From assembly GCA_025061835.1 (NCBI GenBank), contig JANXAC010000002.1, positions 37,185-101,184 on the forward strand: a stretch of 64,000 nt of DNA, given 5' to 3'. Source of the stretch: Spirochaetota bacterium. GTDB lineage: Bacteria > Spirochaetota > Brevinematia > DTOW01. Below, one piece after another: positions 7,985 to 44,536 of this stretch. How positions within the stretch are numbered: the stretch's first letter is position 1; every line of letters begins with the position of its first letter. The notes beneath the pieces are model-generated. The model had not been told where the DNA came from. It made no database searches and saw only the letters and a program-made list of their open reading frames with translations. A program made the translations under genes and the position numbers.

Positions 7985-9649
7985 TTACCTAACGAATATT
8001 GATGTCGTTGCAAAACCACCTATCGGAAAGTCTTCTAGGACTTCTTCTTCTAATATGAAGGGTATAATATTTTTAGATTTTGGGCTTATGTTGAAGACTG
8101 TTGAGAGATAGTTTGGAAGTAGGTTGTAGGTATATCCACTACTCGCGTATCCAGATGAGGGAATCTCAACATACAGAACAAGTTTATCTGTCCTCAAATC
8201 CTGTGATATAAAATTGTATAACTTTTCATAGGTGTCAAAAACTATCGTTTCGGGGAATAAGTTTAACTTCTGTATAGTTCTTGATGCTCTGTTAATGGCA
8301 CCTATGTTTATTCTCGTTCCACTCTGAACCCAACTCGGTATCTTAAGATTAAAGTCTCTTGTTATTATTTGGTCTCTAAACTTTTTTATACCTACGGTTA
8401 CTCTAATATCCTCACCGGGAGAAACTACTACCTTTGACGGAATTACAAACGCAACAAATCCAACATCTATCGGTTCAGTTTCAATCCTAACTCTCACTTC
8501 TTCTATATCAACACTAAAAATAGGGTTATAGATTAGAAAGTCAAGTATAGAATTCACATCAAGAATGGATATAGCATAACCATAACCCATCTGATAGACA
8601 GGTATAATATCACTAAAGTCAATGTTGTATTTTTTATCAACTCCTTCAAACTTGAATGAGACTCTACAGTCAAGTTTGACATTACCTTCTCCAAAGATAC
8701 CTTTGCTCTTCAGAACCGACTCTGTTATGGTAGCAGATACCAGCGAACTTAAAATACCGCTTACTTTAGCAATTTGGTATTTATAGGAGTATTGTCCATC
8801 AACATCAATAAACACTTTGATAGTAGGTGCCGTTTTACCTACTATTCCAAATATCCCACTACTACCATCAAACTCCATACTACCAACAATCTGTTTTGGA
8901 ACACCCAGTTTAAATGACAGACTCTGTCTAGGAACGATTGTAACTATATCCACCTCTGATATAGGAACTGATGTCTTACCACCTAGAAAGGCTGGATGCC
9001 CTAGTGCAAAAACTTTATCGCCATCAACATAACTTACAGTTCCTATGGCAGTAAGTTCCATATCACCAGAGACTAGATTGATACCTATTGCATCACCAGG
9101 TTTAAACCCTCTTTGTGCTGTTTCGTATTTCAAACCAAATGACGAAAACGAGTCAATTATTAAAAAGTTATCTTTCATAGTGCTTTCAATAAGGCTTTTG
9201 GTTATTTTAGAAGCACCACTTAAAAGTATAGGTGTTACATATTTCAAATCGCCTGGCAGTGATACGTAGTTCTTTAGGTAGTTTTCAAGAGTTATCATAT
9301 CTTCTATCGGAGTTATCCCTACAATAGGTTCTTTTAGAAATGTCCAAGTGAATGCAACTGCTCCAACAAGTTTATTGTCTATATATACAGGACTACCACT
9401 CATCCCCGCAACAACACCAGTAGATCTTATCTCTTCATCATCTATCCTTGCTATTATAACTCCAGATTTAGGACTATTCTTGAAGACACCTATAACCTCA
9501 AAAGAAAATTCTTTGAGAGTGTTGTTATTCCATCTAGTTATACCTATACCCTTCTGCCCACTCTTGACATCAGAAAGATTAACAAAAGATGAAAAACACA
9601 AGGAAAAGGTATTTAGGATCGCAAATAATACTATAAAAACCCTTTTCAT
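7985..9649 (-). CDS. secreted serine peptidase, SpoIVB/S55-like (tentative)
   Basis: N-terminal signal peptide; GMSGSPVY and GTVSYVDGDKVFALGHP resemble the Ser and His regions of S55 peptidases, but their order relative to my recollection of SpoIVB is uncertain. Confidence 0.45.
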   Translation of the reverse strand: MKRVFIVLFAILNTFSLCFSSFVNLSDVKSGQKGIGITRWNNNTLKEFSFEVIGVFKNSPKSGVIIARIDDEEIRSTGVVAGMSGSPVYIDNKLVGAVAFTWTFLKEPIVGITPIEDMITLENYLKNYVSLPGDLKYVTPILLSGASKITKSLIESTMKDNFLIIDSFSSFGLKYETAQRGFKPGDAIGINLVSGDMELTAIGTVSYVDGDKVFALGHPAFLGGKTSVPISEVDIVTIVPRQSLSFKLGVPKQIVGSMEFDGSSGIFGIVGKTAPTIKVFIDVDGQYSYKYQIAKVSGILSSLVSATITESVLKSKGIFGEGNVKLDCRVSFKFEGVDKKYNIDFSDIIPVYQMGYGYAISILDVNSILDFLIYNPIFSVDIEEVRVRIETEPIDVGFVAFVIPSKVVVSPGEDIRVTVGIKKFRDQIITRDFNLKIPSWVQSGTRINIGAINRASRTIQKLNLFPETIVFDTYEKLYNFISQDLRTDKLVLYVEIPSSGYASSGYTYNLLPNYLSTVFNISPKSKNIIPFILEEEVLEDFPIGGFATTSIFVR

Positions 9650-9748
9650 ACTTTAAAAATAATAAATAAACTTTTTCAAAGATTCCAAACTTACAGGCTT
9701 CAGTATAATTTTAAAGTCTAGGTTATGCTTTTTTAAAATAGATATTGT

Positions 9749-11140
9749 ATGATAGAAGTTTCCGTCAGTTGGCTTGCTAAAGTTTCACGAGGTAGGCTTG
9801 CATACTCTAAAGGACCTAAACTCATAAGCGGTATATCTACTGACTCAAGAAATATAAAAGAAGGTGAATGTTTTGTAGCACTGAGAGGTAAAAATTTTGA
9901 CGGTCATAACTTCGTCAAAGAGTGTCTATCAAAAAAAGTAACAACTTTTGTTGTTGAAGACGCTTTTTTCAATTCCAATACTAATCTTTTTGAAAGTGCT
10001 AATGCCATTGTAGTCAAGGATACTTACAGAGCATTGATGGATATAGGTAGTGCCTACAGAAACGATTTTGTGCCTGATAAGAAGATCATAGCGATAACTG
10101 GTAGTTCCGGTAAAACTACTACTAAATACATTATAGCACAGTTGCTTTCATACAAGTATAAGGTAGAATTCTCACCTAAAAGCTATAACAACAATGTAGG
10201 TGTTCCATTGTCTATTCTAAAGATAAACGAAGATACAGACATAGGTGTCTTGGAAGTCGGAATGAACAGAAAGGGTGAGATAAGGAAACTTTCAAAAATT
10301 ATTATGCCTGATGTTGGCATCATAACCAATATAGGATACGCCCACATAGAATTTTTAAAAACTGTCAGAAATATAGCACTAGCAAAGTCGGAACTATTTG
10401 AAGGCATACGACAAGGAGGAGTTGTATTTCTCAATAAAAATTCAAGATATTTGGATGTTCTTGAAGTAAACGCAAAAAGATTCCAACTTGATATTCACTA
10501 CTTTGATGTTAAAGAAGCTAGAGTAATACAGAATAGAGGAATAGATGGAGTTGTGTTTGAATACGATGATGTTGAGTTTGATACATCGGTTCCTGGAACC
10601 CATAATATTGAAAATTTGGTTTGCGCCTTTGAGATAGCAAAGTTTTTCGGAATTAAAATATCTGACCTAGTGTCAATAGTCAAAAATCTATCCCTGCCAG
10701 AGATGAGGAATAATGTTATAAGAGGATGGTTTACAGTGATAGATGACTCATATAACGCAAATCCTGACTCTATGATGATGGCTCTTGACCTTTTGGATAG
10801 TGCTAAATCTAAAGGTAAGAAGATAGCAGTTCTTGGAGATATGCTTGAGTTAGGGGAACATTCTCAAAAACTACATCTACAGGTAGCTGACCACATACTT
10901 AATAAGAATATTGACTACATTCTGTGTTATGGCGAGAATTTCTCTCTAGTCCATGATTATCTTATTGAAAAGGGGATGGATAAAAATAATGTTATATCCA
11001 CCTCAAGCATAAACGAAATAGCGGATATACTAGGTTACCTCGTCAAAGAGGGGGATATAGTGCTTGTCAAAGGTTCAAGAGGGATGAGATTGAATGAGAT
11101 CGCTTCGTTCCTAGAAAATAAGATGAAGGAGAATGTATGA
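9749..11140 (+). CDS. murF: UDP-N-acetylmuramoyl-tripeptide--D-alanyl-D-alanine ligase
   Basis: Mur ligase P-loop ITGSSGKTTTK; DDSYNANPDSM motif; N-terminal STDSR...DGH region typical of MurF; 463 aa. Confidence 0.9.
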   Translation: MIEVSVSWLAKVSRGRLAYSKGPKLISGISTDSRNIKEGECFVALRGKNFDGHNFVKECLSKKVTTFVVEDAFFNSNTNLFESANAIVVKDTYRALMDIGSAYRNDFVPDKKIIAITGSSGKTTTKYIIAQLLSYKYKVEFSPKSYNNNVGVPLSILKINEDTDIGVLEVGMNRKGEIRKLSKIIMPDVGIITNIGYAHIEFLKTVRNIALAKSELFEGIRQGGVVFLNKNSRYLDVLEVNAKRFQLDIHYFDVKEARVIQNRGIDGVVFEYDDVEFDTSVPGTHNIENLVCAFEIAKFFGIKISDLVSIVKNLSLPEMRNNVIRGWFTVIDDSYNANPDSMMMALDLLDSAKSKGKKIAVLGDMLELGEHSQKLHLQVADHILNKNIDYILCYGENFSLVHDYLIEKGMDKNNVISTSSINEIADILGYLVKEGDIVLVKGSRGMRLNEIASFLENKMKENV

Positions 11141-12462
11141 TTTTTGCAAAATTCTTCCTATCAGTTCTATCAATAATAGTATCTATCTTCTCTTACTTGT
11201 ATATACTCAAAATCTTAATTACCTTTAAGTTTCCCTTAATGGTTAATGTTATTCTCATCAGCGGTGCTATACTCCTACTTGCTTTGTTCGGTATTGTCAG
11301 TCTTTACATAAGAAGAATAAGAAAATATGATGTTTCAAGATTGGATGTTAATGATGTTCAGAGCATTTCAAGGTTTTTGTCATTCGTCCCTATTTTTTTC
11401 GCGGCACTCTCTGTGTTGATCGTAGTATCAATATCTGCTTATGAGTATCGGACAACAAGAAATATTACAAACTTTTTTAATGTTATTGTATTTTCGCTAC
11501 CTATAGCATTTATATCATACTATCTAGTCAAGATTTCCTTACTTGAGGTAAGACTCAGTGGTTTCTTTTCATTCAGTCGGCGTAATTCTGTAAGCATTCT
11601 ACTGTCTTTCTTGATTGTGATGTTGTTCAATGTACTTGTAGGATTAGGCTTTGTGCTTATTTCCGTATTATACATAAAGAAGTCACTGATGGTTGTCATC
11701 TATGTAGTGGTTTTTTCATTTATCACTTCCCTAATACTTTTCGTTTGGAATCTAGCTTTGAAGTTGAGGTATGTCATTAAGATCCTAAAAGTTCCAGAAA
11801 TGTTTGAGAGTTATGTTCCTGTTCTCTCTAACGATGAGATAGGTTTAATTTCGGTTTATCTTGATGGTATTTTATCCGAATGTAGGCAATCATACAATTT
11901 CCCTAGAATATATCTAGGAGACAAGAAAGTTGATATTGAGTTAGGTAAGCACTTCTGTGGCTGTGTTTGGCTAAAACTCTTTGATGTTCCTTCTCTGTTT
12001 TCAGAGTTCTCTGAAAAAGTTATGGATGATATACAGATAACCTTCGCTAGGATTGAGTCTAAGGTTATTGAAAGTAAAGGGTATGTTGCTAGATTTGATG
12101 GGACTGAGATGTATATAGTCTGGGGGCTAGATGGAACCGACTGGGGTGATAACCTTAAACAGTTTGTCAATTTTCTATACTCTGCTTATAAACAGAATGT
12201 TTTTGACAATATAAGTGTCCTAAAAGTTGGTATTGCTAGTGGGAGAGTATTTGTAGGTAGAACCGAAAGTATATACGGCAATCTGCCATACATTTTCGGA
12301 GAGGGTATAATTGAAAGTTATATCGTCGGCAAGTATGTTAAAGGTGATGGATTTTTTGCATCAGGGGAAATCAAAGATCTCTTCGGAAATTACACTTACA
12401 TAGATAAAGTCAGGGTAAAAGAACTGAACAAAATAGTAGAAATATACAGACTATTCATTTAA
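11137..12462 (+). CDS. membrane-anchored protein with C-terminal class III nucleotidyl cyclase-like domain (tentative)
   Basis: About 7 N-terminal hydrophobic segments; C-terminal LKLFDV ... ARFDGTEMYIVWG ... LKVGIASGRVFVGRTESIYGNLPYIFGEGIIESYIVG resembles the metal-binding Asp strands and the RIGIHTG...GD.VN.A.R segment of adenylate/guanylate cyclase catalytic domains. ATGA overlap with murF stop. Confidence 0.45.
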   Translation: MIFAKFFLSVLSIIVSIFSYLYILKILITFKFPLMVNVILISGAILLLALFGIVSLYIRRIRKYDVSRLDVNDVQSISRFLSFVPIFFAALSVLIVVSISAYEYRTTRNITNFFNVIVFSLPIAFISYYLVKISLLEVRLSGFFSFSRRNSVSILLSFLIVMLFNVLVGLGFVLISVLYIKKSLMVVIYVVVFSFITSLILFVWNLALKLRYVIKILKVPEMFESYVPVLSNDEIGLISVYLDGILSECRQSYNFPRIYLGDKKVDIELGKHFCGCVWLKLFDVPSLFSEFSEKVMDDIQITFARIESKVIESKGYVARFDGTEMYIVWGLDGTDWGDNLKQFVNFLYSAYKQNVFDNISVLKVGIASGRVFVGRTESIYGNLPYIFGEGIIESYIVGKYVKGDGFFASGEIKDLFGNYTYIDKVRVKELNKIVEIYRLFI

Positions 12463-12501
12463 GATATACCATAAATGTATACATTATCGGAGGTCTGTTA
12501 T

Positions 12502-12666
12502 ATGGGTAAGAAGTATTATTACATTGAAGAGGGGGCACAAAAAGGTGCTAAGTTTGATTCTGTTGAGGAATTAAAACAGGCAATGTGGGAAATTTTTAAA
12601 GATAAGATGTCTAAAGATGAATTTGAAAAATACATTAAGGATAAGATAAAAGAAACAGAGGAATAA
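12502..12666 (+). CDS. small charged hypothetical protein (54 aa)
   Basis: ORF track gives 12475 start, but GGAGG at 12489-12493 lies inside that extension and is 8 nt upstream of ATG 12502 (MGKKYYYIEEG...). Confidence 0.4.
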   Translation: MGKKYYYIEEGAQKGAKFDSVEELKQAMWEIFKDKMSKDEFEKYIKDKIKETEE

Positions 12667-12672
12667 ATGTGA

Positions 12673-13344
12673 ATGAGACTACTCTGTGTAAGCGATGTCG
12701 TTGATAAATACTTATATAACTCTGATGATGCTATCAAGATAAAACCAGATCTTATAATATCCTGTGGGGATTTGCCAAGAGATTACTTGGAATTCCTCGT
12801 TTCAAAGTTCAATGTTCCATTACTGTTTGTCCAAGGCAATCACGATAATTATGATGCTATAGAAAGCAGAAAAGAAGGTGTTTTAGAACTCATAGGTGCG
12901 TCAAAATTTGATTTTAAAAGTAAGTATGATTACACTAGATCCTTGGCGGGGATGGAGATCGATAACAAGGTAGTTGTTTTAAACAAATTAATATTTTTAG
13001 GTTTTGAAGGATGTAACAGATACAACAATGGAAGGCATCAATATACTCAAAAAGAGATGTTTAGGAAAGTTAGAAAAACATACTTTAGACTTTTTGTGAA
13101 TAAGATAATATACAACTCTTATGTTGATGTTGTAGTTTCCCACGCACCACCCTACGGAATACATGATAGAAACGATGTGGTTCATACAGGGTTCAAGGCA
13201 TTCCTTGAATTGATTGAAAAGTTCAGACCGAAATATCTACTACACGGACATGTTCATATATACGACAACAGAGAAAGTAGAGTATTTGAGTATAAAGGCA
13301 CAAAGATCATAAACTGCTACGGATATTATATCCTTGATTTGTAA
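12673..13344 (+). CDS. metallophosphoesterase (calcineurin-like phosphoesterase/phosphodiesterase)
   Basis: Motifs GD (CGDLP), GNHD, HAPP, GHVH in canonical order; 223 aa. Confidence 0.75.
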   Translation: MRLLCVSDVVDKYLYNSDDAIKIKPDLIISCGDLPRDYLEFLVSKFNVPLLFVQGNHDNYDAIESRKEGVLELIGASKFDFKSKYDYTRSLAGMEIDNKVVVLNKLIFLGFEGCNRYNNGRHQYTQKEMFRKVRKTYFRLFVNKIIYNSYVDVVVSHAPPYGIHDRNDVVHTGFKAFLELIEKFRPKYLLHGHVHIYDNRESRVFEYKGTKIINCYGYYILDL

Positions 13345-13361
13345 AAGCTAATTAATATCCT

Positions 13362-15320
13362 ATGTTTGCTAAAGTCATTATTGATTTACCTATTGAGGAT
13401 ACATTCTGGTTCAGTATTGACAAATCCAAACAACTGAATAGATTTCAAAGGGTTGTAGTTCCATTCTCTGGGGGAGAAGTAGTAGGTGTTGTTATTGATA
13501 CTAGTGAAGATCCAAAAGATAAGAAGTTAGGAAAAGTTATCAGAGTTATTGACAAAGAGGAAGTATTCACCGAGACTCAATTTGAACTAGCGAAGTTTAT
13601 ATCATACTACTATACATCAACACTCTCTGAAGCACTTTTCACAATGATTCCTAATTCAAGTAGAATAAATTTATCTAAATTGAGGACATTTATTCAACAA
13701 ACTATTGTTGAAAATACAGAACTTACAGTCAGTCAGACGAAAGTTTATGAAGAAGTTAAGAATAGTTTGGGAAGTTATAAAGTATTTGTTTTATATGGTA
13801 TTGCTGGTAGCGGTAAGACTGAAATATATAAGAAATTAGTCAGAGATGTTCTCAACATTGGAAAGTCAGCACTCCTACTTGTTCCAGAAATATCTCTTAC
13901 CCCCCAACTCGTTGATAAGTTTAGTTTCATACCAAAGGATATGTTGGCGGTCTATCATAGTAGGCTCACGGATAACGAAAGATTTAACATATACATCAGT
14001 GTCAAAAAAGGACTTAAGAAGTTTGTAATAGGTCCTAGGTCATCAATATTACTACCTTTTAAAGACCTTGGAATAGTGATAATAGACGAGTTTCACGAAA
14101 CATCATACAAATCATCAACTACACCAAGATACTCAACAAAGGAAGTTGCAAAATGGTTGTGTAAGTATTTCAACATCCCCCTACTACTAGGTTCAGCAAC
14201 ACCTCCAGTAGAAGACTTTTATCTTGCGAAGAATGGTGTATATAAGTTACTAGAACTCAAGGAAAAGTTTTCAAAATATCAAAAAGTTGATGTTGAGATA
14301 ATTGACTCAAAGAAATTATCGCCAAACAATGTTATAGCACCTGAAGTTATATCTCTCGTATCTAATAAGATCAAACAAAATCAGCAGGTAATAGTGTTCA
14401 TAAACCGAAGAGGCTTTAGTAATTTCATAAAGTGTAATAACTGTGGCTATATCCCAATGTGTCCAAATTGCGATATTACACTAACCTACCACAAATACAC
14501 AAACTCTCTTGAATGTCATCATTGCGGACATAAAGAGAAATATGAGGCTGTGTGTAAAAAATGTAGAGCAGGCAAGATGGTAGATGTAGGAAGTGGAACA
14601 GAAAAAGCAGAAGAGATTATTAGAAATTTATTCTACAACAAGAACATAATCAGAGTTGATTTGGACACTACCAGAGATAAAGGTATCTATGACAAGATTT
14701 ACAAGTCTCTTAGAGATGGTGATATAGATGTGATTGTCGGAACGCAGATAATATCCAAAGGACTTGATATACCCCAAGTTAATCTTGTTTGTGTGCTATT
14801 TCCAGAGATTACTTTGAGAATACCTGATTTCTACTCAGCTGAGCGAACATTCTCTTTAGTGATGCAGGCAATTGGTAGAGCAGGTAGAAGAGATGAGAAA
14901 GGTTTAGCAATTATTCAGACATCAGATACAGAACATTACAGTATCAGAACGGCAGTAGAACAGGATTACGAAAGTTTCTATTCTCACGAAATACAGAGAA
15001 GAGAGACTTACAAATATCCACCGTTTTGGCGGATTACCAGGTTTGTCTTCAGAAGTGAGATTGAGAAAAATTGTATTGAAGTAGGTAAGTCAGCAAAGGT
15101 TCTACTAGACGGTATAGCACACGGTAGAGACGATATAGTAGTATCTTCACTACTCCCAGCACCTATAACCAAAATATCAGGGAATTATAGACACCAGATA
15201 ATCGTAAAAAGTAAAGATGAACAGATACTAACAAGAGCACAAGAGATCGTGTATAAAAACTTAAGAAACAAGATGGGGGTTTATATAGAAATTGACAGAG
15301 ATCCTGTTTCACTCATGTAG
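13362..15320 (+). CDS. priA: primosomal protein N' (replication restart helicase)
   Basis: Walker A GIAGSGKTE; DEFH box (IIDEFHETSY); double Cys-cluster zinc finger CNNCGYIPMCPNCD...CHHCGH...CKKC characteristic of PriA; 652 aa. Confidence 0.9.
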   Translation: MFAKVIIDLPIEDTFWFSIDKSKQLNRFQRVVVPFSGGEVVGVVIDTSEDPKDKKLGKVIRVIDKEEVFTETQFELAKFISYYYTSTLSEALFTMIPNSSRINLSKLRTFIQQTIVENTELTVSQTKVYEEVKNSLGSYKVFVLYGIAGSGKTEIYKKLVRDVLNIGKSALLLVPEISLTPQLVDKFSFIPKDMLAVYHSRLTDNERFNIYISVKKGLKKFVIGPRSSILLPFKDLGIVIIDEFHETSYKSSTTPRYSTKEVAKWLCKYFNIPLLLGSATPPVEDFYLAKNGVYKLLELKEKFSKYQKVDVEIIDSKKLSPNNVIAPEVISLVSNKIKQNQQVIVFINRRGFSNFIKCNNCGYIPMCPNCDITLTYHKYTNSLECHHCGHKEKYEAVCKKCRAGKMVDVGSGTEKAEEIIRNLFYNKNIIRVDLDTTRDKGIYDKIYKSLRDGDIDVIVGTQIISKGLDIPQVNLVCVLFPEITLRIPDFYSAERTFSLVMQAIGRAGRRDEKGLAIIQTSDTEHYSIRTAVEQDYESFYSHEIQRRETYKYPPFWRITRFVFRSEIEKNCIEVGKSAKVLLDGIAHGRDDIVVSSLLPAPITKISGNYRHQIIVKSKDEQILTRAQEIVYKNLRNKMGVYIEIDRDPVSLM

Positions 15321-15363
15321 GTCATTCTAATGATTTTAGTTGTCATTCCGTAAATATTAGAGT

Positions 15364-16173
15364 ATGTCAAGTAGTAAGAAATCTAAATATCCTCCTCAGA
15401 AGGACAAAGTAACAACCAAACCAAAGTCTAGATCAAAAAGTAAAAGGAAGAGAGACTTATCAAAAATACTCATACTAATCTTATCCCTAGTAGCCATCGG
15501 AGGTGTTGTATATGTAGTTTATGATATTATCCAAAACAACCGAACACTAGTATCTGAACAGAATTATATAACTCAAGTTTGGACTAACAACCCAACCTTG
15601 AACGCAATGGTTAGTAATACAAATTATGTAAAGACCAATTCAAAGTCTTTAGAAATGAGTAATGTTGTTGAAAAAACTCAAGAGAGTTTTGAAAAGAAGA
15701 AGATTACAAACTCAGTCTCAATAAAGAAGGATAGTGTCAATGAAGAAGATAGTAAGGTAGATGTTAAGAGAGTAAAGATTTACTACTACAGAGTTTCTGG
15801 AGATAATCTTGTCTTTTCATCAAGGCAGGTTGATTTGAATGGAGATAGTTTGTATGAAGTTTTCAAAACTCTAAAACAGATCAAGAATTCCGATAATGAA
15901 GTATCCTTCGTCAACAAGAGAGTGAGAATTATTGATTATAGAGTTGTAGATGATACTCTAATTATAAACTTATCAAGAGAGATTGAGATAAATGAATACG
16001 GAAGTATAGGTGTTTTGTATTCCATCTACCAGATAGCATATTCTCTTGGTAGTATTACAAGATCCAAAAATGTTCTTGTGCTTATAGAAGGAACTAAACC
16101 TAACTATATAGAAGGAGAAGGAATAGTTTTTCAAAATCCTATAGATATAACTAGACTTCCTGCTATCAACTAG
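15364..16173 (+). CDS. hypothetical membrane-anchored protein with basic N-terminus
   Basis: Lys/Ser-rich N-terminus followed by one hydrophobic segment (ILILILSLVAIGGVVYVVY) and a ~200-aa extracytoplasmic domain; no motif named. Confidence 0.5.
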   Translation: MSSSKKSKYPPQKDKVTTKPKSRSKSKRKRDLSKILILILSLVAIGGVVYVVYDIIQNNRTLVSEQNYITQVWTNNPTLNAMVSNTNYVKTNSKSLEMSNVVEKTQESFEKKKITNSVSIKKDSVNEEDSKVDVKRVKIYYYRVSGDNLVFSSRQVDLNGDSLYEVFKTLKQIKNSDNEVSFVNKRVRIIDYRVVDDTLIINLSREIEINEYGSIGVLYSIYQIAYSLGSITRSKNVLVLIEGTKPNYIEGEGIVFQNPIDITRLPAIN

Positions 16174-34346: not shown

Positions 34347-35108
34347 ATGTCTCTTAAGGAAATGATCTCAATATCTACAAAAGTAATCCCTTCAGTAGAT
34401 GAAATAATTTCAGAATCTCTCAAGAGACACAATTTTACTCCCCAAGATGTAGAAGAAAACTTTTCCGATTCAGTAGAAACTTTAGAAAGAATAGCAAATG
34501 GTATATATAATGAATATGAAAACAAATGTTTGGAAACTTTTGTACAAAAATGGATAAGACAAAGAAGACTAGACGACATAGAGAAAATAAAGATCCTCAA
34601 CTGTGAAAACTACGTAGAAAAACTTAAAAACGAGTTTCTTGAATTCGCAAAAGCAATCCAAAATCTTGAAAAACATCTTGGCAATATGAGAAAAGCAAGA
34701 GGAGGAAAGAGCTTTGAAAAGATCATTCTAATACTTCTTAGAATGATAGAGATTACTTGTGAGATACCGAAAGGAGAATATAGAAATAGGCTAAAGAGAA
34801 TAGATATAGTAATACCATCATCTCAGCAAGCCATAAATTATCCAGACAGGTCTGTATTTCTAACCTGTAAAAGGACATTGAGAGAAAGATGGAAACAAGA
34901 AGTCCCTCAAGTAGGACCTAACTAGACAGTGTACCTGATAACTATTGACGATGATATAAGTCAAGGAAAAGCCGAAGAAATACGTTATATGGGTTTAATA
35001 GCTTTCACAAAGGATAGTGTAGCACGCAATATAAACAAGCCTTGGATAAGAGGACTATCAAATTTACCCAAAGACATAAAACAAAAGATAGGAAGAGCAA
35101 AGAGGTAG
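34347..35108 (+). pseudogene. presumed restriction-endonuclease partner of the downstream methyltransferase, interrupted by one in-frame TAG (34923-34925)
   Basis: Own translation: the frame of the 192-codon ORF continues open for 60 more codons (TVYLITIDDD...KQKIGRAKR) to TAG 35106-35108, 3 nt before the methyltransferase ATG. Nuclease identity is inferred from position only (RIDIVIP/FLTCK could be a degenerate PD-(D/E)xK core). Confidence 0.4.
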
Positions 35109-35111
35109 AAT

Positions 35112-36374
35112 ATGATACAGAAAGAACTGTTTGACAAAGGTCTATTTAATACTGACTTCCTAGCATCAGATACCTCTCACAAGAGACAAAGAGAGCCTTA
35201 TTTTGACTTTAAGGGAATTAAAGCTAGTGAAGGTATTTACGGCATTCACCCATATCCAGCAATGTTCCATTACAGAGTCGTTAGAGAGTTAATAAAGAAT
35301 TTTTCAAATGATAATAGCATTGTTTTTGATCCGTTCCTAGGCTCGGGAGTCAGTGCTGTTGAGAGTATAATAAGCAGGAGAAATTTCATAGGATACGACA
35401 TAAACCCTCTAGGTGTTTTAATATCAAAAGTTAGGACAACACCTATACCAACAAGAGAACTTCTAGAGACTCTCAACTTCATAGTTCAAAATTTTGATAA
35501 TCAAGCAGCTGAAAAACCCTCCTTCACAAATATTGATTACTGGTTTAATGAGAGTGTGGCTAAATCTCTATCAAAAATAAAGAAAACAATCCTGCAGATA
35601 CAGGATAGAGTAAGAGACTTTTTCTTAGTAGCATTTTCAGAAACGGTAAGAAAGGTATCACTAACAGACCATAATGAATATAAGCTTTTGAAAGACAGTT
35701 CAAAGATAGTAGAAGATGTTAATGTTATAAAAACATTTAACGAGATCTCCCAAAGAAACATAAAACTACTAACAGATTTTTACAGAACCAATGAAGTTTC
35801 AGGCAAAATAATCTCAATTCAAGTTAGGAACATATTAGATGGATTGGACTTTGACTACCCTGCTGACTTAATTATAACCTCTCCTCCTTATGGTGACTCT
35901 AGAACTACTGTTGCCTATGGTCAGTTTTCAAGACTATCTCTACAATGGATAGGAATAAACGAAAATATTGACAAAAAATCACTAGGAGGCAAGATTAGTA
36001 AAATTCATACTAACTTACCTTCAGAGACTTTATATACTACCCTCAAGGAAATTCTAAAAGTTGATGAAAGGAGAGCTGTAGAAATATTTTCGTTCTACGA
36101 AGATCTTTACAACGCTATAAAGGTAATAGCAAAATCGGTAAAGAGAGGTGGTTATGTATGCTTTGTTGTCGGAAACAGAAGAGTTAGAAAAGTAGATCTT
36201 CCAACGGATATAATCTCTGCTGAATTCTTTATTAATGAAGGACTAGAACATATTAAAACAATAGTTAGAAAAATCCATAACAAGAGAATACCAATTCAAA
36301 ATTCTCCCTCCAACATAAAAGGAAATACTGACACAACGATGCGATACGAATATATTCTGATACTCCGTAAGTAA
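35112..36374 (+). CDS. amino (N4-cytosine or N6-adenine) DNA methyltransferase
   Basis: SAM-binding FxGxG-type motif (VFDPFLGSGVSAV) followed about 175 aa later by catalytic SPPY (IITSPPYGD), an alpha-class-like arrangement; AAAGAGG RBS. Confidence 0.8.
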   Translation: MIQKELFDKGLFNTDFLASDTSHKRQREPYFDFKGIKASEGIYGIHPYPAMFHYRVVRELIKNFSNDNSIVFDPFLGSGVSAVESIISRRNFIGYDINPLGVLISKVRTTPIPTRELLETLNFIVQNFDNQAAEKPSFTNIDYWFNESVAKSLSKIKKTILQIQDRVRDFFLVAFSETVRKVSLTDHNEYKLLKDSSKIVEDVNVIKTFNEISQRNIKLLTDFYRTNEVSGKIISIQVRNILDGLDFDYPADLIITSPPYGDSRTTVAYGQFSRLSLQWIGINENIDKKSLGGKISKIHTNLPSETLYTTLKEILKVDERRAVEIFSFYEDLYNAIKVIAKSVKRGGYVCFVVGNRRVRKVDLPTDIISAEFFINEGLEHIKTIVRKIHNKRIPIQNSPSNIKGNTDTTMRYEYILILRK

Positions 36375-36500: not shown

Positions 36501-38969
36501 CTAGATAAACAGATTAATGTTTGAGTTTGAAGCGTTTGCGATGTAAGTAGCAACACCTCCTATTTTTATACCATCAATGAGTTCTTCTCTTCTTATTCCC
36601 ATAACATCCATAGACATCTGACAGGCAACAATTTCAACGCCACTCCTCATCGCATTCTGTATCAGTTCTTCAAGAGTTGAGATATTCTTCTTCTTCATAA
36701 GCCATCTTATCATCTTAGGTCCTATGCCAAACATATTCATTTTTGACAATTTTAGGTTTTCAGTCCCTTTTGGTAGCATCATACCAAACATCTTTGATAT
36801 GAGATCTTTCTTGACTTTTACCTTAGAGTTTTTCTTAAGAGCATTCAGACCCCAGAATGTGAAAAACATACTAACTTTCTTTCCCGCAGATAAGGCACCG
36901 TTTGCTATAACAAATGACGCTATCAGTTTATCAAGGTCATCATCAAATACTATTATGGTAGCAGAATTGTTAGTTGAGATAACATTTGAAGTAGAGAGTG
37001 TTTCTTGCGAAGACTTTTCTATCACAGCCTCAATTATTCCCTTATCTTGCTTTAGAGATAGTAATTTATTACCTGTAACATCGGTCCAAGCCTTGACATC
37101 ATTAGCAAAACCCGGGTCAGTTGCCTTTACAACGACTTTTGCACCTCTTTGGAGAGAATCCATACTCTGTTTCAACTTGAGTATAGGACCTGGACACTGT
37201 AATCCACAAGCATCAACTTCAACAACTACTCCTTCCTTTGTCTCCTTAAGTGGTTCTTGAGTCACAAGGTCAGATAGGTCAACTCTATATCCAGTATATA
37301 TATCCTCATTACCTTGCTTCTGGGTTACTACTTCATAAGTCTTGTATCCACCCGTAAGGTTATAAACCTCCTCAAATCCATTCTGATAAAGTATCCTACA
37401 AGCAACATAAGCTCTTAAGCCAACTCCACAATACACAATTATCTTTTTATCTCTTGGCAACTTATCAAGGTTATTTCTCAGTTCATCAACAGGTATATTA
37501 ACAGAACCTTCAATGTGTCCAAGATCATACTCATCTTTGGTTCTAACATCAAGCACAAAAATACTAGATTTATCACTGTTCAAAAACTCATCCCAAGTTA
37601 TTATCTTCTGCTTCCCACTCAAAACATTCTCTGCCACATAACCTGCTATGTTAACAGGATCTTTCGCCGAAGAGTATGGTGGAGCATAAGCATGATCTAG
37701 GTCAATCAAATCATAAACAGTTAATCCTGCTTGTATAGCTGTTGATAGAACATCTATCCTTTTATCAACTCCATCATATCCAACAGCCTGTGCCCCAAGT
37801 ATCCTACCATCTTCAGGAGAAAATATGAGCTTGAGAGACATAGGAAGAGCACCAGGATAATACCCTGCGTGAGATGAAGGGTGTATTATAACATACTTAT
37901 ACGGTATCCCTTCTCTCTTGAGTAGTTTTTCAGTTGCACCTGTAACAGCAACAGTTATATCAAAAACCTTCGCTATAGCAGTTCCTATAGACCCCTTATA
38001 CCTTCTAACATTACCAAAGACTATGTTATCGGCAACAATCCTACCTTGTAAGTTAGCAGGCCACGCCAAAGGAATACCTATCTTCTTCTTTATGACAGGA
38101 TGATAAACTTCAATAGCATCTCCAATAGCATATATATCAGGGTCCGAAGTTTGTAAGTAATCATTCACAACTATATGTCCTCTCTCTCCTATCTCAAGTC
38201 CCGCTTCCTTTGCTAGTTTACTCTCTGGTCGCACACCAATAGAAAGTATCACCATATCAACTGATAGTTTTCTACCACTACTCAAGTTAACTACTATCCT
38301 ACCATCAAGGTCCTTATCAAAACTTGCTACACTATCCTTAAGATAGAACTCAACATTCTTCGTTTTTAAGTGCTGATGAACCAAAGCAGCCATCTCAAAG
38401 TCAATAACCCCCATAACTTGTTCCATCGCTTCAACAATCGTAACCAGAATGCCTCTATGCGCTAGATTTTCCGCCATCTCAAGCCCAATAAATCCTGCCC
38501 CTACTATCACCGCTCTCCTCGGTTTGTTTGAATCAATAAATTCCTTTATCCTATCAGTATCTCTTATGTCTCTAAGAGTGAAGATATTTGGTAAATCTAT
38601 ACCCGGTATCGGTGGTTTAACTGGTGTTGCTCCCGGTGAAAGCACAAGTTTATCATACTTCTCCGTATATTCATTACCAGTTCTCAAATCCCTAACTAAA
38701 ACTTCTTTTTTCTCTCTATCAATCTTCAAAACTTCACTCCTAACCCTAACATCTACATTAAACCTCCTGATAAAGCCTTCAACTGTTTGAACCAAAAGAT
38801 TACTCCTCTCTTTTATCACACCACCTATGTAGTAAGGTAACCCACAGTTAGCATAAGATATATACTCACCTCTCTCAAAAACCACTATCTCTGCCCTCTC
38901 ATCCAGTCTTCTCAACCTAGCAGCAGTTGACATACCTCCAGCAACACCACCTACTATCACGCACTTCAT
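36501..38969 (-). CDS. four-domain sulfur oxidoreductase: CoA-disulfide reductase/NADH oxidase - rhodanese - TusA - DsrE-like
   Basis: FAD/NAD Rossmann VIVGGVAGG with redox Cys in SYANCGLPY; rhodanese active loop YCGVGLRA; TusA CPxP motif (CGLQCPGPIL); C-terminal DsrE-like region (EIVACQMSMD). Track start 38981 overlaps GGAGG; true ATG likely 38969 (MKCVIVGG). Confidence 0.8.
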   Translation of the reverse strand: MKCVIVGGVAGGMSTAARLRRLDERAEIVVFERGEYISYANCGLPYYIGGVIKERSNLLVQTVEGFIRRFNVDVRVRSEVLKIDREKKEVLVRDLRTGNEYTEKYDKLVLSPGATPVKPPIPGIDLPNIFTLRDIRDTDRIKEFIDSNKPRRAVIVGAGFIGLEMAENLAHRGILVTIVEAMEQVMGVIDFEMAALVHQHLKTKNVEFYLKDSVASFDKDLDGRIVVNLSSGRKLSVDMVILSIGVRPESKLAKEAGLEIGERGHIVVNDYLQTSDPDIYAIGDAIEVYHPVIKKKIGIPLAWPANLQGRIVADNIVFGNVRRYKGSIGTAIAKVFDITVAVTGATEKLLKREGIPYKYVIIHPSSHAGYYPGALPMSLKLIFSPEDGRILGAQAVGYDGVDKRIDVLSTAIQAGLTVYDLIDLDHAYAPPYSSAKDPVNIAGYVAENVLSGKQKIITWDEFLNSDKSSIFVLDVRTKDEYDLGHIEGSVNIPVDELRNNLDKLPRDKKIIVYCGVGLRAYVACRILYQNGFEEVYNLTGGYKTYEVVTQKQGNEDIYTGYRVDLSDLVTQEPLKETKEGVVVEVDACGLQCPGPILKLKQSMDSLQRGAKVVVKATDPGFANDVKAWTDVTGNKLLSLKQDKGIIEAVIEKSSQETLSTSNVISTNNSATIIVFDDDLDKLIASFVIANGALSAGKKVSMFFTFWGLNALKKNSKVKVKKDLISKMFGMMLPKGTENLKLSKMNMFGIGPKMIRWLMKKKNISTLEELIQNAMRSGVEIVACQMSMDVMGIRREELIDGIKIGGVATYIANASNSNINLFI

Positions 38970-39307
38970 AAAAGCCTCCATAAACTACAAACAGTATATA
39001 GTATAATAAATATATTGAGATAATTATATCAAAGTTTGAAAAATCTACAATACTTGTAGTATTTTACATAACCAAAATAGATTAGATTTTATAAAGACAG
39101 CCTAAATCGTTAGAAAAAACACTAAACTTTATCACAACTCAAAAGAAACACACCTATGTAGAGAGGAAATTACTCACACTAGGATTACAGCAAAACCTTA
39201 AGGGTATATTACCTTTTAAATACTACTTTACCAAACTTTGAAGGTGAATAGGATATTAGGTTTTATCTTTAGTCCTCCCATCCAGATTGTTTATATTATC
39301 TACACAA

Positions 39308-40663
39308 ATGTATAAAAAAACTACTATCCTAGTTGTAGATGATGAGACTGAAATACTAGTCTCAATAAATAACATCCTCCAAGAAGAGTTTGATGTATTA
39401 GTATCAAGAGACTTTTCTCTATCTCTAAAAATACTGGAAGAAATACAACCTGATGTAGCATTAATTGACCTAAAACTAGGAGATAGGGACGGTAGGGAGA
39501 TCATAAAATCTATCAAAGAGAGGGACTTGAAGACACAGATTATAGTCATATCTGCCTACACTGATATTGAAAATATCGTTGATAGCATCAAACTAGGTGC
39601 TTTTGATTTTGTTGAGAAACCTATCTCACCAGCTAGATTGAAGGTTGCTATCAAGAATGCTCTTGAAAATCTAGAATTAAGAAAACTACTAGAAAACAAA
39701 ATCCTCTCTGAAGGAATAACTACTCAAAACCCTAGGATGAAAGAGATAATCAAACTCGTTGAAAAATCCGCATCCACTAGTTTTCCAGTTCTAATACTCG
39801 GCGAATCTGGAACTGGTAAGGAGAGAATAGCATCTCTCATCCATAATTTAAGTAAGAGAAGATATAAAGAGTTTGTTAAACTCAACTGTTCTGCTATACC
39901 TTCTGAACTTTTTGAGTCTGAGTTGTTTGGATACGAAAAAGGTTCATTCACTGGAGCATACCAAAGTAAGAAAGGTAAGTTTGAAATAGCAAACGGTGGA
40001 ACACTATTCCTAGATGAGATCGGCGATTTGTCTCTGGAACATCAGGCAAAACTCCTACGAGCAATAGAATACGGAGAGATAACCAAAATAGGTAGTAAAG
40101 AAACAATAAAGGTTGATGTTAGGATAGTATCTGCTACCAACAAAGACCTTGAGAGAATGGTCAAAGAAAAAGCATTCAGAGAAGACTTGTTTTACAGAAT
40201 AAATGTCATCACAATACATCTACCACCACTCAGAGAAAGAAAAGAAGATATAAAAATACTCGCAGAATTTTTCCTAAAAGAGACGATACAAAAAGAAGGA
40301 TTACCAAACAAGTATTTAACAGACGAAGCAATCCATTTGCTTGAAAACTATGACTACCCCGGTAATGTAAGAGAACTTAAAAACATCATTCAGAGGCTTG
40401 TCATAGTATCAGAAAAGGAAGTTATAACCAAGGAAGATGTCAATAAAGTTATAGCAACAACCAATCTCAATAGAGATTACGATAAACTTGTATCAATCCT
40501 ATCATCCAAACTACCACCCAACACCGCAAGAGAAGAATTTGAAAAAATCTACCTAAAGCACCACCTTGAGAAAAACCAAAACAACGTCTCAAAAACTGCA
40601 CTCTCATTAGGTATCCTACCAAACAACCTATTAAGAAGACTCAAAGAACTAGGTTTGAAATAA
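39308..40663 (+). CDS. sigma-54-dependent two-component response regulator (NtrC family)
   Basis: Receiver domain (ILVVDDE...ALIDLKLGDRDG), AAA+ sigma-54 activator domain with Walker A GESGTGKE and GSFTGA (GAFTGA-type) loop, C-terminal HTH. Track start 39287 is TTG; first ATG 39308 gives the usual receiver N-terminus. Confidence 0.85.
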   Translation: MYKKTTILVVDDETEILVSINNILQEEFDVLVSRDFSLSLKILEEIQPDVALIDLKLGDRDGREIIKSIKERDLKTQIIVISAYTDIENIVDSIKLGAFDFVEKPISPARLKVAIKNALENLELRKLLENKILSEGITTQNPRMKEIIKLVEKSASTSFPVLILGESGTGKERIASLIHNLSKRRYKEFVKLNCSAIPSELFESELFGYEKGSFTGAYQSKKGKFEIANGGTLFLDEIGDLSLEHQAKLLRAIEYGEITKIGSKETIKVDVRIVSATNKDLERMVKEKAFREDLFYRINVITIHLPPLRERKEDIKILAEFFLKETIQKEGLPNKYLTDEAIHLLENYDYPGNVRELKNIIQRLVIVSEKEVITKEDVNKVIATTNLNRDYDKLVSILSSKLPPNTAREEFEKIYLKHHLEKNQNNVSKTALSLGILPNNLLRRLKELGLK

Positions 40664-41858: not shown

Positions 41859-42419
41859 GTGTTAGATATAATTAGACTAATCGGTAGTATCTTTTACCCC
41901 TTGGTAGAAGGAATTAGAATAATAGGAGTTCTAATAGGTATTACTGCTCTATCCTCTACCGAAATTGGTTTGGAAAATCCTAGGTTTTTTGAAGACAACA
42001 GAGGAAACTTGATCTTCTCATTCAACCTAAAAAACACCTTCAACGATAAGTTCCAAAGGCTTGTTGAAAGAGGGATAACATCAGGATATGCTATAGATGT
42101 TTCATTCCAAACAACCAAGATACTTGTGAATGTCTCAATAACTAACAAAGTTACATACAATAACTCAAAGAATATGTTTCTGGTTCATCTTCATAAGAAT
42201 GCTACGACAAAAAGTATTACAATAAACAGTATAGAGGAAGTAAAAACTGTTATGAACCAAATAAACATTCTTCTTCCAAAGTCTGGAATAGAAGGAGAAG
42301 AAGTAACGGTAAGGATAAAAGCAGAACCGTTTTTTGAGTATCAGGAGTTTAGTGATATAGATCCTTCAAGAGCTGTATGGGGCAGAAAACTGAGTGTTGA
42401 AATAAAGTATAGACTATGA
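41859..42419 (+). CDS. hypothetical membrane-associated protein (186 aa)
   Basis: ORF track; starts at GTG, no in-frame ATG in the first ~100 codons; hydrophobic N-terminus; 3' end overlaps the convergent histidine kinase gene. Confidence 0.42.
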   Translation: MLDIIRLIGSIFYPLVEGIRIIGVLIGITALSSTEIGLENPRFFEDNRGNLIFSFNLKNTFNDKFQRLVERGITSGYAIDVSFQTTKILVNVSITNKVTYNNSKNMFLVHLHKNATTKSITINSIEEVKTVMNQINILLPKSGIEGEEVTVRIKAEPFFEYQEFSDIDPSRAVWGRKLSVEIKYRL

Positions 42420-43562
42420 CACAACTGGTAGTCTTACAACTACTTCTGTTGTACCTTCAGAAACGCTAGAGTTTACCGTTATATCACCATAACTCTCAAG
42501 TATTATCTTCCTTGTAATTGCTAACCCTATCCCCCTTCCACCTTTCTTATATGATACTCCAAAGTCAAATATCTTATCCAAAATCTCTTTAGGAATACCC
42601 CCACCATTGTCCCAAAATCTTACAATAGCAGAATCTCCATCCCTAGATACACTAACTCTAACAATACCCTTACCATCGGTAGCCTCAAAACTATTCTTGA
42701 GTATATTAACAAAAGCGTTCATAAGCAAAACCCTATCAACCATAACGAAAACTTCACTTTCACCACTCTCAAACTCAAACTGGAAAAATAGCCTCAACTC
42801 TTCAAGAATAGAAATCAAGTTTTCTTTTCTAGGAACTGGTTTCGGAAGAGATGAAATCTCTCTTATTTTGGAAAGAAACTGGTTTATATTATCCAATATT
42901 TTGTCAATCCTTCTAATAGTTTCAACGTTTAAACCTTTACCGCTTTGAATTGAGTTTTTTACTTCCGTATATACCGGCGTAAGAAGATTACCAACCTCAT
43001 GAACCATAACTTTACTTACATCTCTCCAACCTTCAAACCTCTCAAGTTCCGCAACCCTTTTTTCATACTCAACTAACCTAGACACTAGGTTTTGAAACGA
43101 CAACGATATCTTACCTATATCCTTAAATATAGGTTTAGGAAACGCTATATTTAGACTAACTGGGAACTTGAAGTTAGTAAGAAAATCAACTAGCAACCTC
43201 AACTGCCTTGTTATCAGTAAAGAAAGTAGCACAGAGGACAGAACAAAAACTAGAAAGGTAGCACCTGATGTTCTTATCACACTGTTCATAGCATTCCTAA
43301 ATATCTCCTCTTGCGAGACTAACAAAAAACTAATCTTTCTATCCAGATACATTAGTTCCTTTTCAACCTTCTCAATCTCTCCTCTGCTAACAAGAGCCCT
43401 AATCTCTCCAATCTTATTTGAAATCTCAAACATATTGAACTTACCTACCATAGTATTCCATAGGCTAAATCCAAACCAAACGGTTAGAACAGAATAAACT
43501 GCTGACACCAAAATAACCAGAATAATTATAACCTTCCTCATAACTAAATTTTGACTAAACAT
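42414..43562 (-). CDS. sensor histidine kinase (two transmembrane segments, DHp + HATPase domains)
   Basis: H-box HEVGNLLTP; N-box NAFVNILKNSFEA; G1 FWDNGGGIP; G2 GGRGIGLAI; N-terminal and mid hydrophobic segments. Confidence 0.85.
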   Translation of the reverse strand: MFSQNLVMRKVIIILVILVSAVYSVLTVWFGFSLWNTMVGKFNMFEISNKIGEIRALVSRGEIEKVEKELMYLDRKISFLLVSQEEIFRNAMNSVIRTSGATFLVFVLSSVLLSLLITRQLRLLVDFLTNFKFPVSLNIAFPKPIFKDIGKISLSFQNLVSRLVEYEKRVAELERFEGWRDVSKVMVHEVGNLLTPVYTEVKNSIQSGKGLNVETIRRIDKILDNINQFLSKIREISSLPKPVPRKENLISILEELRLFFQFEFESGESEVFVMVDRVLLMNAFVNILKNSFEATDGKGIVRVSVSRDGDSAIVRFWDNGGGIPKEILDKIFDFGVSYKKGGRGIGLAITRKIILESYGDITVNSSVSEGTTEVVVRLPVVS

Positions 43563-43642: not shown

Positions 43643-44536
43643 CTAGTATGACTCATCAAATACAGAAACTTCTTCGTCTTCCTGTGTGTTGTAAGTTAGG
43701 TAATCCTCACAGTTCTCGGCATCATAAACTATTACGGTTTGATCTCTAACCTCAATCATCCTATAATAACCATCTTTACCTATTGAACCCGTTTGAACAT
43801 GGTAAGGACCTACTCCTTTTGCAACCAATGGGAAGGATGTTATAAGGTTTGATCCATTATCAAAAACTCTGTTTTTGTGAGTATGACCTGACAATATCAA
43901 AGATACATCGTAACTTGTTATTATCCTCTGAAACTCTTCTCTACCTAGTATGAATACATCCTCTTGTATTCCATTTTTCGGGCTTAAAAAAGGATGGTGG
44001 GTAATGATGATGTTTGTATTGCTAGAGTTTTTCAGCGCATCTTCAAGAAATTCTAGTTGATGCTTAAATAGACCAACACCTTCGGAACTAGGTATCATCA
44101 AGTTGTGTAGATGGAAGGAATAACTATAGTCATACCCCGTGTCAAGGAATATGAGCCTTACATTCTTAATATCAACATAGTAATTCAAAAATTCACTTCC
44201 AATGAAACTTCTGTAATTTGGGATATCCTTAAGAGAGAATTTAAAAAGTGTTCCGTATTCGTGATTACCCGGGACAAAATACAGCGGTATCTTCATCTCT
44301 CTGTCAAAGTAGAAAATACCATCGGAGTAGTAGAATAGATCATTTAATATCTCATAGTTTGACTTTGCTAAAATTCCCTCGCCAAACTCAACTATGTCAC
44401 CAGAAATTATAACTACATCAGGAGACAGCAGATTAAGGTTCATCCTCAAAATTTCTATATTTCTAACATAATTCCTAGAGAACAAGTTGATGCTATCTAT
44501 ATGCAAATCAGTAAGATGTAGTATTCTCAAACTCAT
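43643..44536 (-). CDS. metallophosphoesterase (calcineurin-like)
   Basis: LHLTDLHI, GDIVEFG, GNHEYG, ITHHP, GHTHKN motifs in canonical order; 297 aa. Confidence 0.8.
   Translation of the reverse strand: MSLRILHLTDLHIDSINLFSRNYVRNIEILRMNLNLLSPDVVIISGDIVEFGEGILAKSNYEILNDLFYYSDGIFYFDREMKIPLYFVPGNHEYGTLFKFSLKDIPNYRSFIGSEFLNYYVDIKNVRLIFLDTGYDYSYSFHLHNLMIPSSEGVGLFKHQLEFLEDALKNSSNTNIIITHHPFLSPKNGIQEDVFILGREEFQRIITSYDVSLILSGHTHKNRVFDNGSNLITSFPLVAKGVGPYHVQTGSIGKDGYYRMIEVRDQTVIVYDAENCEDYLTYNTQEDEEVSVFDESY

Follow-up and report, generated by a model that had tools for sequence, protein, structure and literature searches.

What is a cyclase-like gene doing with its start codon inside the stop codon of murF? 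The question arises from a 64-kb stretch of contig JANXAC010000002.1, from a Spirochaetota bacterium of the class Brevinematia (the whole stretch is referred to as the window; its G+C content is ~35%). murF, encoding UDP-MurNAc-tripeptide--D-Ala-D-Ala ligase, is followed on the + strand by an open reading frame (ORF) for a cyclase-like protein of 441 amino acids (aa; 11137-12462), a 54-aa ORF and a gene for a 223-aa metallophosphoesterase. The initial annotation had described this layout correctly between 11137 and 13344. It read the cyclase-like gene and the phosphoesterase gene as a synthase/hydrolase pair for a nucleotide second messenger, expression-coupled to peptidoglycan precursor synthesis. 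Our analysis leads to a different answer. The 441-aa protein carries a degenerate class III cyclase homology domain (CHD) and is, from its sequence, probably a non-enzymatic signalling or scaffold protein and not a second-messenger synthase. Its gene is coupled to murF in every lineage for which the upstream flank was retrieved; the small ORF and the phosphoesterase form a separate module.

Homology of the C-terminal domain

The 441-aa protein has 11 close homologues (51-91% identity), and where a source is named, as it is for a few of these, it is Brevinematia or Brevinematales. A profile search added three deeper branches of the family, P0012, P0013 and P0014, with identities of 40%, 38% and 27%, respectively. 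The family comprises about 15 sequence clusters and was found only in Brevinematia and Brevinematales metagenome-assembled genomes (MAGs). A scan of genome contigs returned only five loci, whose MAGs all bear the title Brevinematia, Brevinematales, Spirochaetes or uncultured bacterium.

Single-sequence scans of the 441-aa protein against Pfam and NCBIfam gave nothing even at E ≤ 1, and this includes the class III cyclase model PF00211. The branches P0012-P0014 do not match PF00211 either, and the precomputed Pfam annotation is blank for 11 of 11 close homologues. The relationship to cyclases becomes apparent when a family profile is used. Searched against PDB sequences, the profile gave six matches, all of them class III adenylate/guanylate cyclases (E 0.011-0.037). 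Searched against 1.84 billion representative proteins, it reached genuine PF00211 cyclases (E 1e-7 to 3e-4), including membrane MASE10/HAMP/PF00211 cyclases whose own PF00211 match has an E value of ~1e-27; also reached were a PF00211 protein of 303 aa and two proteins that match no Pfam family. In a profile-profile comparison with hhalign, the 15-member family aligned to five true cyclases with 97.8% probability (E 7.6e-13, 229 columns), the aligned span covering a HAMP-type segment and the whole catalytic domain.

AlphaFold2 (AF2), run with a deeper alignment of 11 family members and 46 true cyclases, modelled residues 201-441 with a mean predicted local distance difference test score (pLDDT) of 84, rising to >90 over the CHD, and the β4-β5 arm of the domain is predicted to be retained. 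The top 50 PDB matches of the CHD model in a Foldseek search are all class III cyclases. Two points tell against this structural support: with a family-only alignment the CHD is modelled at pLDDT <50, and the fold match is not fully independent, because the confident model was built on an alignment dominated by canonical cyclases. The independent evidence for homology is therefore that obtained from sequence only, namely the profile searches and hhalign. By these comparisons the C-terminal domain (residues 255-441 plus the stop codon; 11899..12462, + strand) is a class III cyclase homology domain, as the initial annotation had proposed from its resemblance to a cyclase catalytic domain. Neither the profile searches nor hhalign nor Foldseek pointed to an unrelated fold, and we regard it as extremely improbable that the domain is another palm-type domain, such as GGDEF, the Cas10 palm or the CHD-like fold of the AdvA type.

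Catalytic residues

The catalytic residues were compared in a 58-sequence alignment of 46 true cyclases and 12 family members. The first metal-binding Asp, present in 46/46 true cyclases, corresponds to position 283 of the 441-aa protein, which is Asp in the window protein and in nine family members overall, and Gly, Glu and Asn in one member each. The second metal-binding Asp, again present in 46/46 true cyclases, is found in 0/12 family members; the corresponding position, Thr323, is Thr in seven, Ile in two, and Asn, Val and Ser in one each. The purine-binding Lys (Lys in 39 true cyclases, Gln in seven) is replaced by Arg in six family members and is Lys in the other six, and its Thr/Asp partner (Thr in 38, Ala in seven) is Tyr385 in 12/12. 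At the position of the phosphate-binding Arg (Arg in 44, Lys in two), the family has Gly381 in 12/12. The transition-state Asn and Arg, both invariant in the 46 true cyclases, are likewise replaced in all 12 family members, by Ile/Leu/Val and Val/Ile, respectively, and the Gly of the KGK motif (46/46) is Glu or Asp. Neither of the residue pairs that specify the substrate (Lys plus Asp/Thr for ATP, Glu plus Cys for GTP) is present in the family, which combines Arg or Lys with the invariant Tyr385. An alternative MAFFT register places Lys280 at the position of the first metal Asp, and hhalign places a 5-residue deletion over the NxxxR motif; none of the alignments tried (the 58-sequence alignment, the MAFFT register and hhalign) restores the catalytic residues.

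Considered in the light of the established mechanism of class III cyclases, these losses leave defects in the metal half of the active site as well as in its Asn/Arg half, so that this CHD could not make up a canonical site even when paired with a different CHD in a heterodimer. In pseudo-heterodimeric cyclases, the non-catalytic half, such as the C2 domain of soluble adenylyl cyclase ADCY10, still supplies Lys, Asp, Asn and Arg for the shared site, whereas the Brevinematia CHD misses both residue sets, and there is no partner CHD gene nearby. In ADCY10, the best match of the family profile is to the second cyclase-domain repeat (~306-398), which likewise has no GD metal Asp at the aligned position. 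The cyclase-like domain is thus, as judged from its residues, catalytically degenerate, with almost all catalytic residues lost; the initial annotation had raised this possibility and had suggested the metal-binding and substrate-specifying residues as the place to look. The 441-aa protein would accordingly make no cyclic nucleotide.

Could the domain nevertheless be an active cyclase of an unconventional kind, whose product is hydrolysed by the downstream phosphoesterase in a second-messenger circuit expressed with murF? The CHD fold is present, with its β4-β5 arm predicted to be retained; Asp283 is in place in the window protein; a basic residue occupies the position of the purine-binding Lys; and the invariant acidic residues Glu324, Glu389 and Glu393 could in principle bind metal. 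We consider this very unlikely, given that the family has lost four residues that are found in 44-46 of the 46 true cyclases (the second metal Asp, the phosphate-binding Arg, and the transition-state Asn and Arg), and that the first metal Asp is itself Gly, Glu or Asn in three members.

Despite these losses, no other part of the protein is as well conserved as the CHD. Across 15 sequences that range down to 27% identity, the domain has 23 invariant positions, compared with 16 in the longer transmembrane (TM) region. Glu324, Gly381, Tyr385 and Glu389 are among the family-specific residues that are invariant in 15/15 sequences, and Arg370, Glu393, Tyr395, Gly398 and Gly405 vary little or not at all in the 12 closest members. 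The gene is therefore functional, and the domain is under purifying selection for something other than cyclase catalysis.

Membrane region and linker

The N-terminal region (residues 1-207; 11137..11757, + strand) is predicted to span the membrane six times. AF2 places helices at residues 2-28, 34-63, 71-107, 110-143, 148-179 and 181-217 (pLDDT 75-92), and hydropathy analysis gives six hydrophobic segments. Loops rich in Lys and Arg are located at residues 58-72, 138-153 and 208-230, positions that by the positive-inside rule fit a topology with both termini in the cytoplasm. The polytopic membrane part of the initial annotation therefore holds, but the count of about seven TM helices has to be revised to six. 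Two loops are conserved and contain invariant residues: the cytoplasmic RKYDVSRLD (62-70) and the predicted periplasmic AYEYR (101-105). The TM region matches no Pfam family, and a fold search returned generic helical bundles only. We did not adopt an assignment as MASE10 or another Pfam sensor domain: the hhalign alignment to the MASE10-type cyclase P0015 extends over TM3-TM6, with very low per-column confidence.

Residues 208-254 (11758..11898, + strand) form a HAMP-like linker between the membrane region and the CHD. In the hhalign comparison, residues 206-255 align to the HAMP region of genuine HAMP-cyclases, and the AS2-type motif VPVLSNDEIGL of the linker pairs with VPVxSxDELG of the true HAMP-cyclases. 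The Pfam HAMP model (PF00672) does not match the 441-aa protein, and in a MAFFT alignment a helical segment of ~14 residues, which lies between HAMP and CHD in canonical HAMP-cyclases, is missing from it.

The overall architecture is that of the bacterial 6TM/MASE10-HAMP-CHD adenylate cyclases (P0015, P0017, P0019 and P0021), which also have a polytopic membrane anchor, a HAMP-type linker with the motif VPVxSxDE(L/I)G and a C-terminal CHD; Rv3645 of Mycobacterium tuberculosis is of this type. The Brevinematia family differs from these enzymes in lacking the catalytic residues and the ~14-residue segment, in being missed by the PF00211 and HAMP models, and in always being coupled to murF.

Coupling to murF

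In the window, murF (463 aa; 9749..11140, + strand) is identified by TIGR01143 (E 3e-119) and by the Mur_ligase, Mur_ligase_M and Mur_ligase_C families. The junction between murF and the 441-aa ORF (11126..11140, + strand) can be read directly from the sequence ...GAG AAT GTA TGA: the ATG at 11137-11139 and the murF stop codon TGA at 11138-11140 overlap as ATGA, exactly as stated in the initial annotation. A Shine-Dalgarno sequence, AAGGAG, is located at 11126-11131 within the 3' end of murF, with a 5-nt spacer before the ATG at 11137. Promoter and terminator scans over 9500-15500 performed no better than on shuffled sequences.

The same arrangement is found throughout the family. murF is directly upstream in 18/18 of the fetched loci in which both a family member and the flank upstream of it are covered (L001-L005, L012/13, L015, L017/18/21, L019, L020, L022 and L023); as several of these are duplicate contigs, the 18 loci represent about ten independent lineages, which cover the whole identity range down to 27%. 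The two genes overlap by 4 nt in L001-L004 and L017 and by 14 nt in L012; in L015 they are separated by 1 nt. The tight coupling to murF that the initial annotation had noted in the window is thus a conserved feature, while the outer flanks of the gene pair vary between loci.

Does this persistence reflect a functional link? Conceivably, the pseudo-cyclase receptor has no role related to peptidoglycan, and its position next to murF is a frozen operon arrangement that merely supplies transcription and translation. murF lies outside any dcw cluster, and it is the only dcw gene that was found in the 64-kb window; priA begins 17 nt past the phosphoesterase gene and is followed by a GerM-like gene and ruvB, all in the same direction, and murF is part of a run of unrelated housekeeping genes. 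The cyclase-like protein also evolves much faster than MurF (29-62% and 53-72% identity across loci, respectively), and no co-fused or co-varying feature was found. On the other side of the balance, every lineage, even at 27% identity, has kept the overlapping or abutting junction through repeated changes on both flanks, and such persistence would be unusual for a neutral arrangement. We view the frozen operon as a serious alternative, but a somewhat unlikely one.

In five related loci, an ORF of 139-144 aa is present directly upstream of murF (L002, 4142-4567; L003, 4132-4566; L004, 3134-3562; L012, 3134-3553; L017, 1821-2249). It is not present in the window, and Pfam scans of the L002 and L012 copies gave nothing significant.

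The 54-aa protein and the phosphoesterase

The ORF for the highly charged 54-aa protein (12502..12666, + strand) starts 39 nt past the 441-aa ORF, with a GGAGG at 12489-12493 preceding its ATG at 12502; in homologous loci the small ORF is called at 54-59 aa. The protein is 78-87% identical in L001-L004, L017, L019 and L020, and has no family match in Pfam, NCBIfam or PADLOC scans. The metallophosphoesterase gene (12673..13344, + strand) starts 6 nt past the small ORF, and its product is a member of the Pfam family Metallophos (PF00149, E 1e-13).

The metal ligands of the phosphoesterase are intact and invariant (D8, GD33, GNH57, H157 and HGHxH195), and there are additional family-specific invariant residues, D165, D168 and H171. 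The His of motif I is absent, the sequence being D-V-V instead of D-x-H. Metallophosphoesterase motifs are common to all such enzymes and do not specify a substrate. The family has >2000 homologues in several phyla, annotated by JGI as 'Icc-related predicted phosphoesterase'. The single sequence has no match in the PDB, and a profile matches only Dbr1 and MPPED2 (E ~1e-3). In the NCBIfam and PDB searches the protein showed no significant similarity to Icc, CpdA or Rv0805; no Icc or CpdA model of NCBIfam matches, the one weak match being to the YfcE family, below the cut-off. The initial annotation was right in calling this a small metallophosphoesterase, but nothing places the 223-aa protein among the cyclic nucleotide (cNMP) phosphodiesterases.

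The small ORF and the phosphoesterase gene come after the cyclase-like gene in the window and in L001-L005, L017, L019 and L020. In L015 the pair is absent, and the next gene encodes an S49 peptidase. A phosphoesterase gene is also found in L012, but we rejected it as a conserved partner: it is convergent and non-orthologous (25% identity over 77 residues). In other Brevinematales, orthologues of the phosphoesterase (44-48% identity) are preceded by a homologous 50-aa ORF, whose product in L006-L009 is 53-56% identical to the 54-aa protein. There the pair sits between nadA (encoding quinolinate synthase) and a gene for an unknown protein of 302-310 aa, the NAD kinase gene and recN (L006, 4836-5678; L009, 4840-5699), and no cyclase-like gene was found in the fetched flanks. 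This setting could point to a connection with NAD or nucleotide metabolism. A Spirochaetales MAG has the phosphoesterase but neither the small ORF nor a cyclase-like neighbour. The small ORF and the phosphoesterase gene are therefore a separate two-gene module, placed beside the murF/pseudo-cyclase pair in one clade; in other words, the locus consists of two conserved gene pairs that are juxtaposed in that clade.

These observations bear on the proposed second-messenger circuit. A phosphoesterase with intact metal ligands does follow the cyclase-like gene in most loci of the family, and MPPED2, one of its weak PDB matches, is a weak cNMP hydrolase. However, in other Brevinematales and in Spirochaetales the phosphoesterase has no cyclase-like gene beside it, the pair is missing from L015, the enzyme does not resemble known cNMP phosphodiesterases such as Icc, CpdA or Rv0805, and neither a canonical cyclase nor a cNMP-binding protein was found in the 64-kb window. 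With the catalytic residues of the putative synthase lost, and the putative hydrolase separable from it, absent in L015 and non-orthologous in L012, the synthase/hydrolase pair put forward in the initial annotation is not supported.

Residues 149-215 of the window phosphoesterase partially match the PADLOC defence candidate PDC-S10 (E 8.7e-14). A Pycsar-like or other defence function of the locus was considered and dropped, as PADLOC has no match for the cyclase-like protein or the small ORF.

Possible function of the pseudo-cyclase

Our preferred reading is that the 441-aa protein is a receptor-type pseudo-cyclase, consisting of six TM helices, a HAMP-like linker and a dead CHD, which is co-produced with MurF and likely acts on peptidoglycan-precursor synthesis; we consider the chances that this is correct to be about even. 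The architecture and the predicted retention of the β4-β5 arm make a dimeric membrane receptor most likely, and the protein would dimerise like other 6TM-HAMP-CHD proteins. It may sense something in the membrane or periplasm, with the conserved loops as candidate sites, and the signal would pass through the HAMP-like linker to the CHD, which would bind a protein partner or a nucleotide, or act as a scaffold, and would not be an enzyme. Because of the co-translation with MurF in all lineages, we propose cytoplasmic peptidoglycan-precursor synthesis as the most likely target, for example by tethering or modulating MurF at the membrane.

In a more specific version of this idea, the protein would be a membrane regulator dedicated to MurF. 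Its dead CHD would have MurF as ligand, or else a nucleotide such as ATP or UDP-MurNAc-peptide, and would relay a signal from the envelope to the final cytoplasmic step of precursor synthesis. We consider this version unlikely; to our knowledge, such control of Mur ligases has not been described before.

Several considerations weigh against the receptor-type pseudo-cyclase. We infer catalytic inactivity from sequence, and the invariant Glu324 (which adjoins the lost metal Asp), Glu389, Glu393 and Arg370 could together make up a site of an unconventional kind. The link to MurF and cell-wall synthesis is inferred from gene order alone, and the operons of compact genomes mix unrelated functions, as exemplified here by priA and ruvB, which follow in the same direction. 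Finally, a more distant relative of 478 aa, P0016 (L014, 5001-7902), has a similarly degenerate cyclase-like domain and does not adjoin murF. Its gene is followed, with a stop/start overlap, by a gene for a 149-aa cNMP-binding protein (PF00027, E 2.7e-17) and by an AI-2E family transporter gene. This neighbourhood hints that such degenerate domains may still belong to cNMP signalling, and it also lends some support to the active cyclase discussed above.

There are precedents for non-canonical CHDs. AdvA of Acinetobacter baumannii (PDB 7SUA) and PA4961, two membrane proteins whose CHD-like domain is inactive, control cell division, and AdvA assembles and activates the divisome (bioRxiv 10.64898/2026.04.03.716176). 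AdvA and the Brevinematia protein have in common a membrane anchor, a cytoplasmic cyclase-like domain without catalytic residues and an apparent connection to the envelope or division. The traits of the AdvA type, absence of the dimerisation arm and an extra C-terminal helix, are not those of the Brevinematia CHD. A Pseudomonas aeruginosa protein described in the title of its PDB entry (6yii) as a 'class III adenylyl cyclase-like ATP-binding protein' is another precedent; it is soluble and has a transcriptional-regulator context, whereas the Brevinematia protein is a predicted membrane receptor for which nucleotide binding is putative.

A comparable gene arrangement is the cdaA-cdaR-glmM operon of Firmicutes, in which a membrane-anchored nucleotide-signalling protein and an enzyme of peptidoglycan-precursor synthesis are expressed together. 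CdaA has the unrelated DAC fold and is active as a diadenylate cyclase, whereas the Brevinematia domain is a degenerate CHD and its partner is MurF.

The family described here, previously unannotated ('hypothetical', with no Pfam model), is clearly descended from membrane adenylate cyclases, although catalytically dismantled, and is locked to murF across an entire spirochaete class. Taken together with the recent work on AdvA, it raises the possibility that the cell-envelope machinery has recruited pseudoenzymes of the cyclase fold more than once. If the link to MurF is true, the family would offer a new handle on membrane control of cytoplasmic precursor synthesis. The locus also calls for caution: a 'cyclase-like' gene beside a phosphoesterase gene does not amount to a second-messenger circuit unless the catalytic residues have been checked.

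Other observations

A second distant relative, P0018 (L024, 51-1950), is a 487-aa protein without a Pfam match, encoded on a contig of ~2 kb. Its gene overlaps the start of the gene for apolipoprotein N-acyltransferase (Lnt), another envelope-related neighbour. In a related Brevinematales MAG, a protein of >720 aa with metallo-beta-lactamase/Apyc1-type (anti-Pycsar nuclease-like) and cNMP-binding domains is encoded 3.3 kb downstream of the cassette (L001, 11475-13326).

The cluster in the window is flanked by two genes whose families have sporulation or germination names, yet are present here in a spirochaete. A 554-aa homologue of the SpoIVB-type peptidase S55 is encoded upstream of murF in divergent orientation (7985-9649, - strand), and the GerM-like ('Germane') protein is encoded on the other flank (15364-16173, + strand).

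Further along the window, an 826-aa protein (36501-38981, - strand) consists of a pyridine-nucleotide-disulphide oxidoreductase fused to Rhodanese, TusA and DsrE-like domains, and looks like a multi-domain enzyme for sulfur transfer or persulfide handling. Close together between 39287 and 44536 are genes for a sigma-54 response regulator (39287-40663), a histidine kinase with a HATPase_c domain (42414-43562, - strand) and, near these two, a second, unrelated metallophosphoesterase of 297 aa (43643-44536, - strand). An EcoRII-C-like ORF (a weak match, E 4.6e-6) adjoins a gene for an N6/N4 DNA methylase at 34347-36374; the two are probably a restriction-modification pair.

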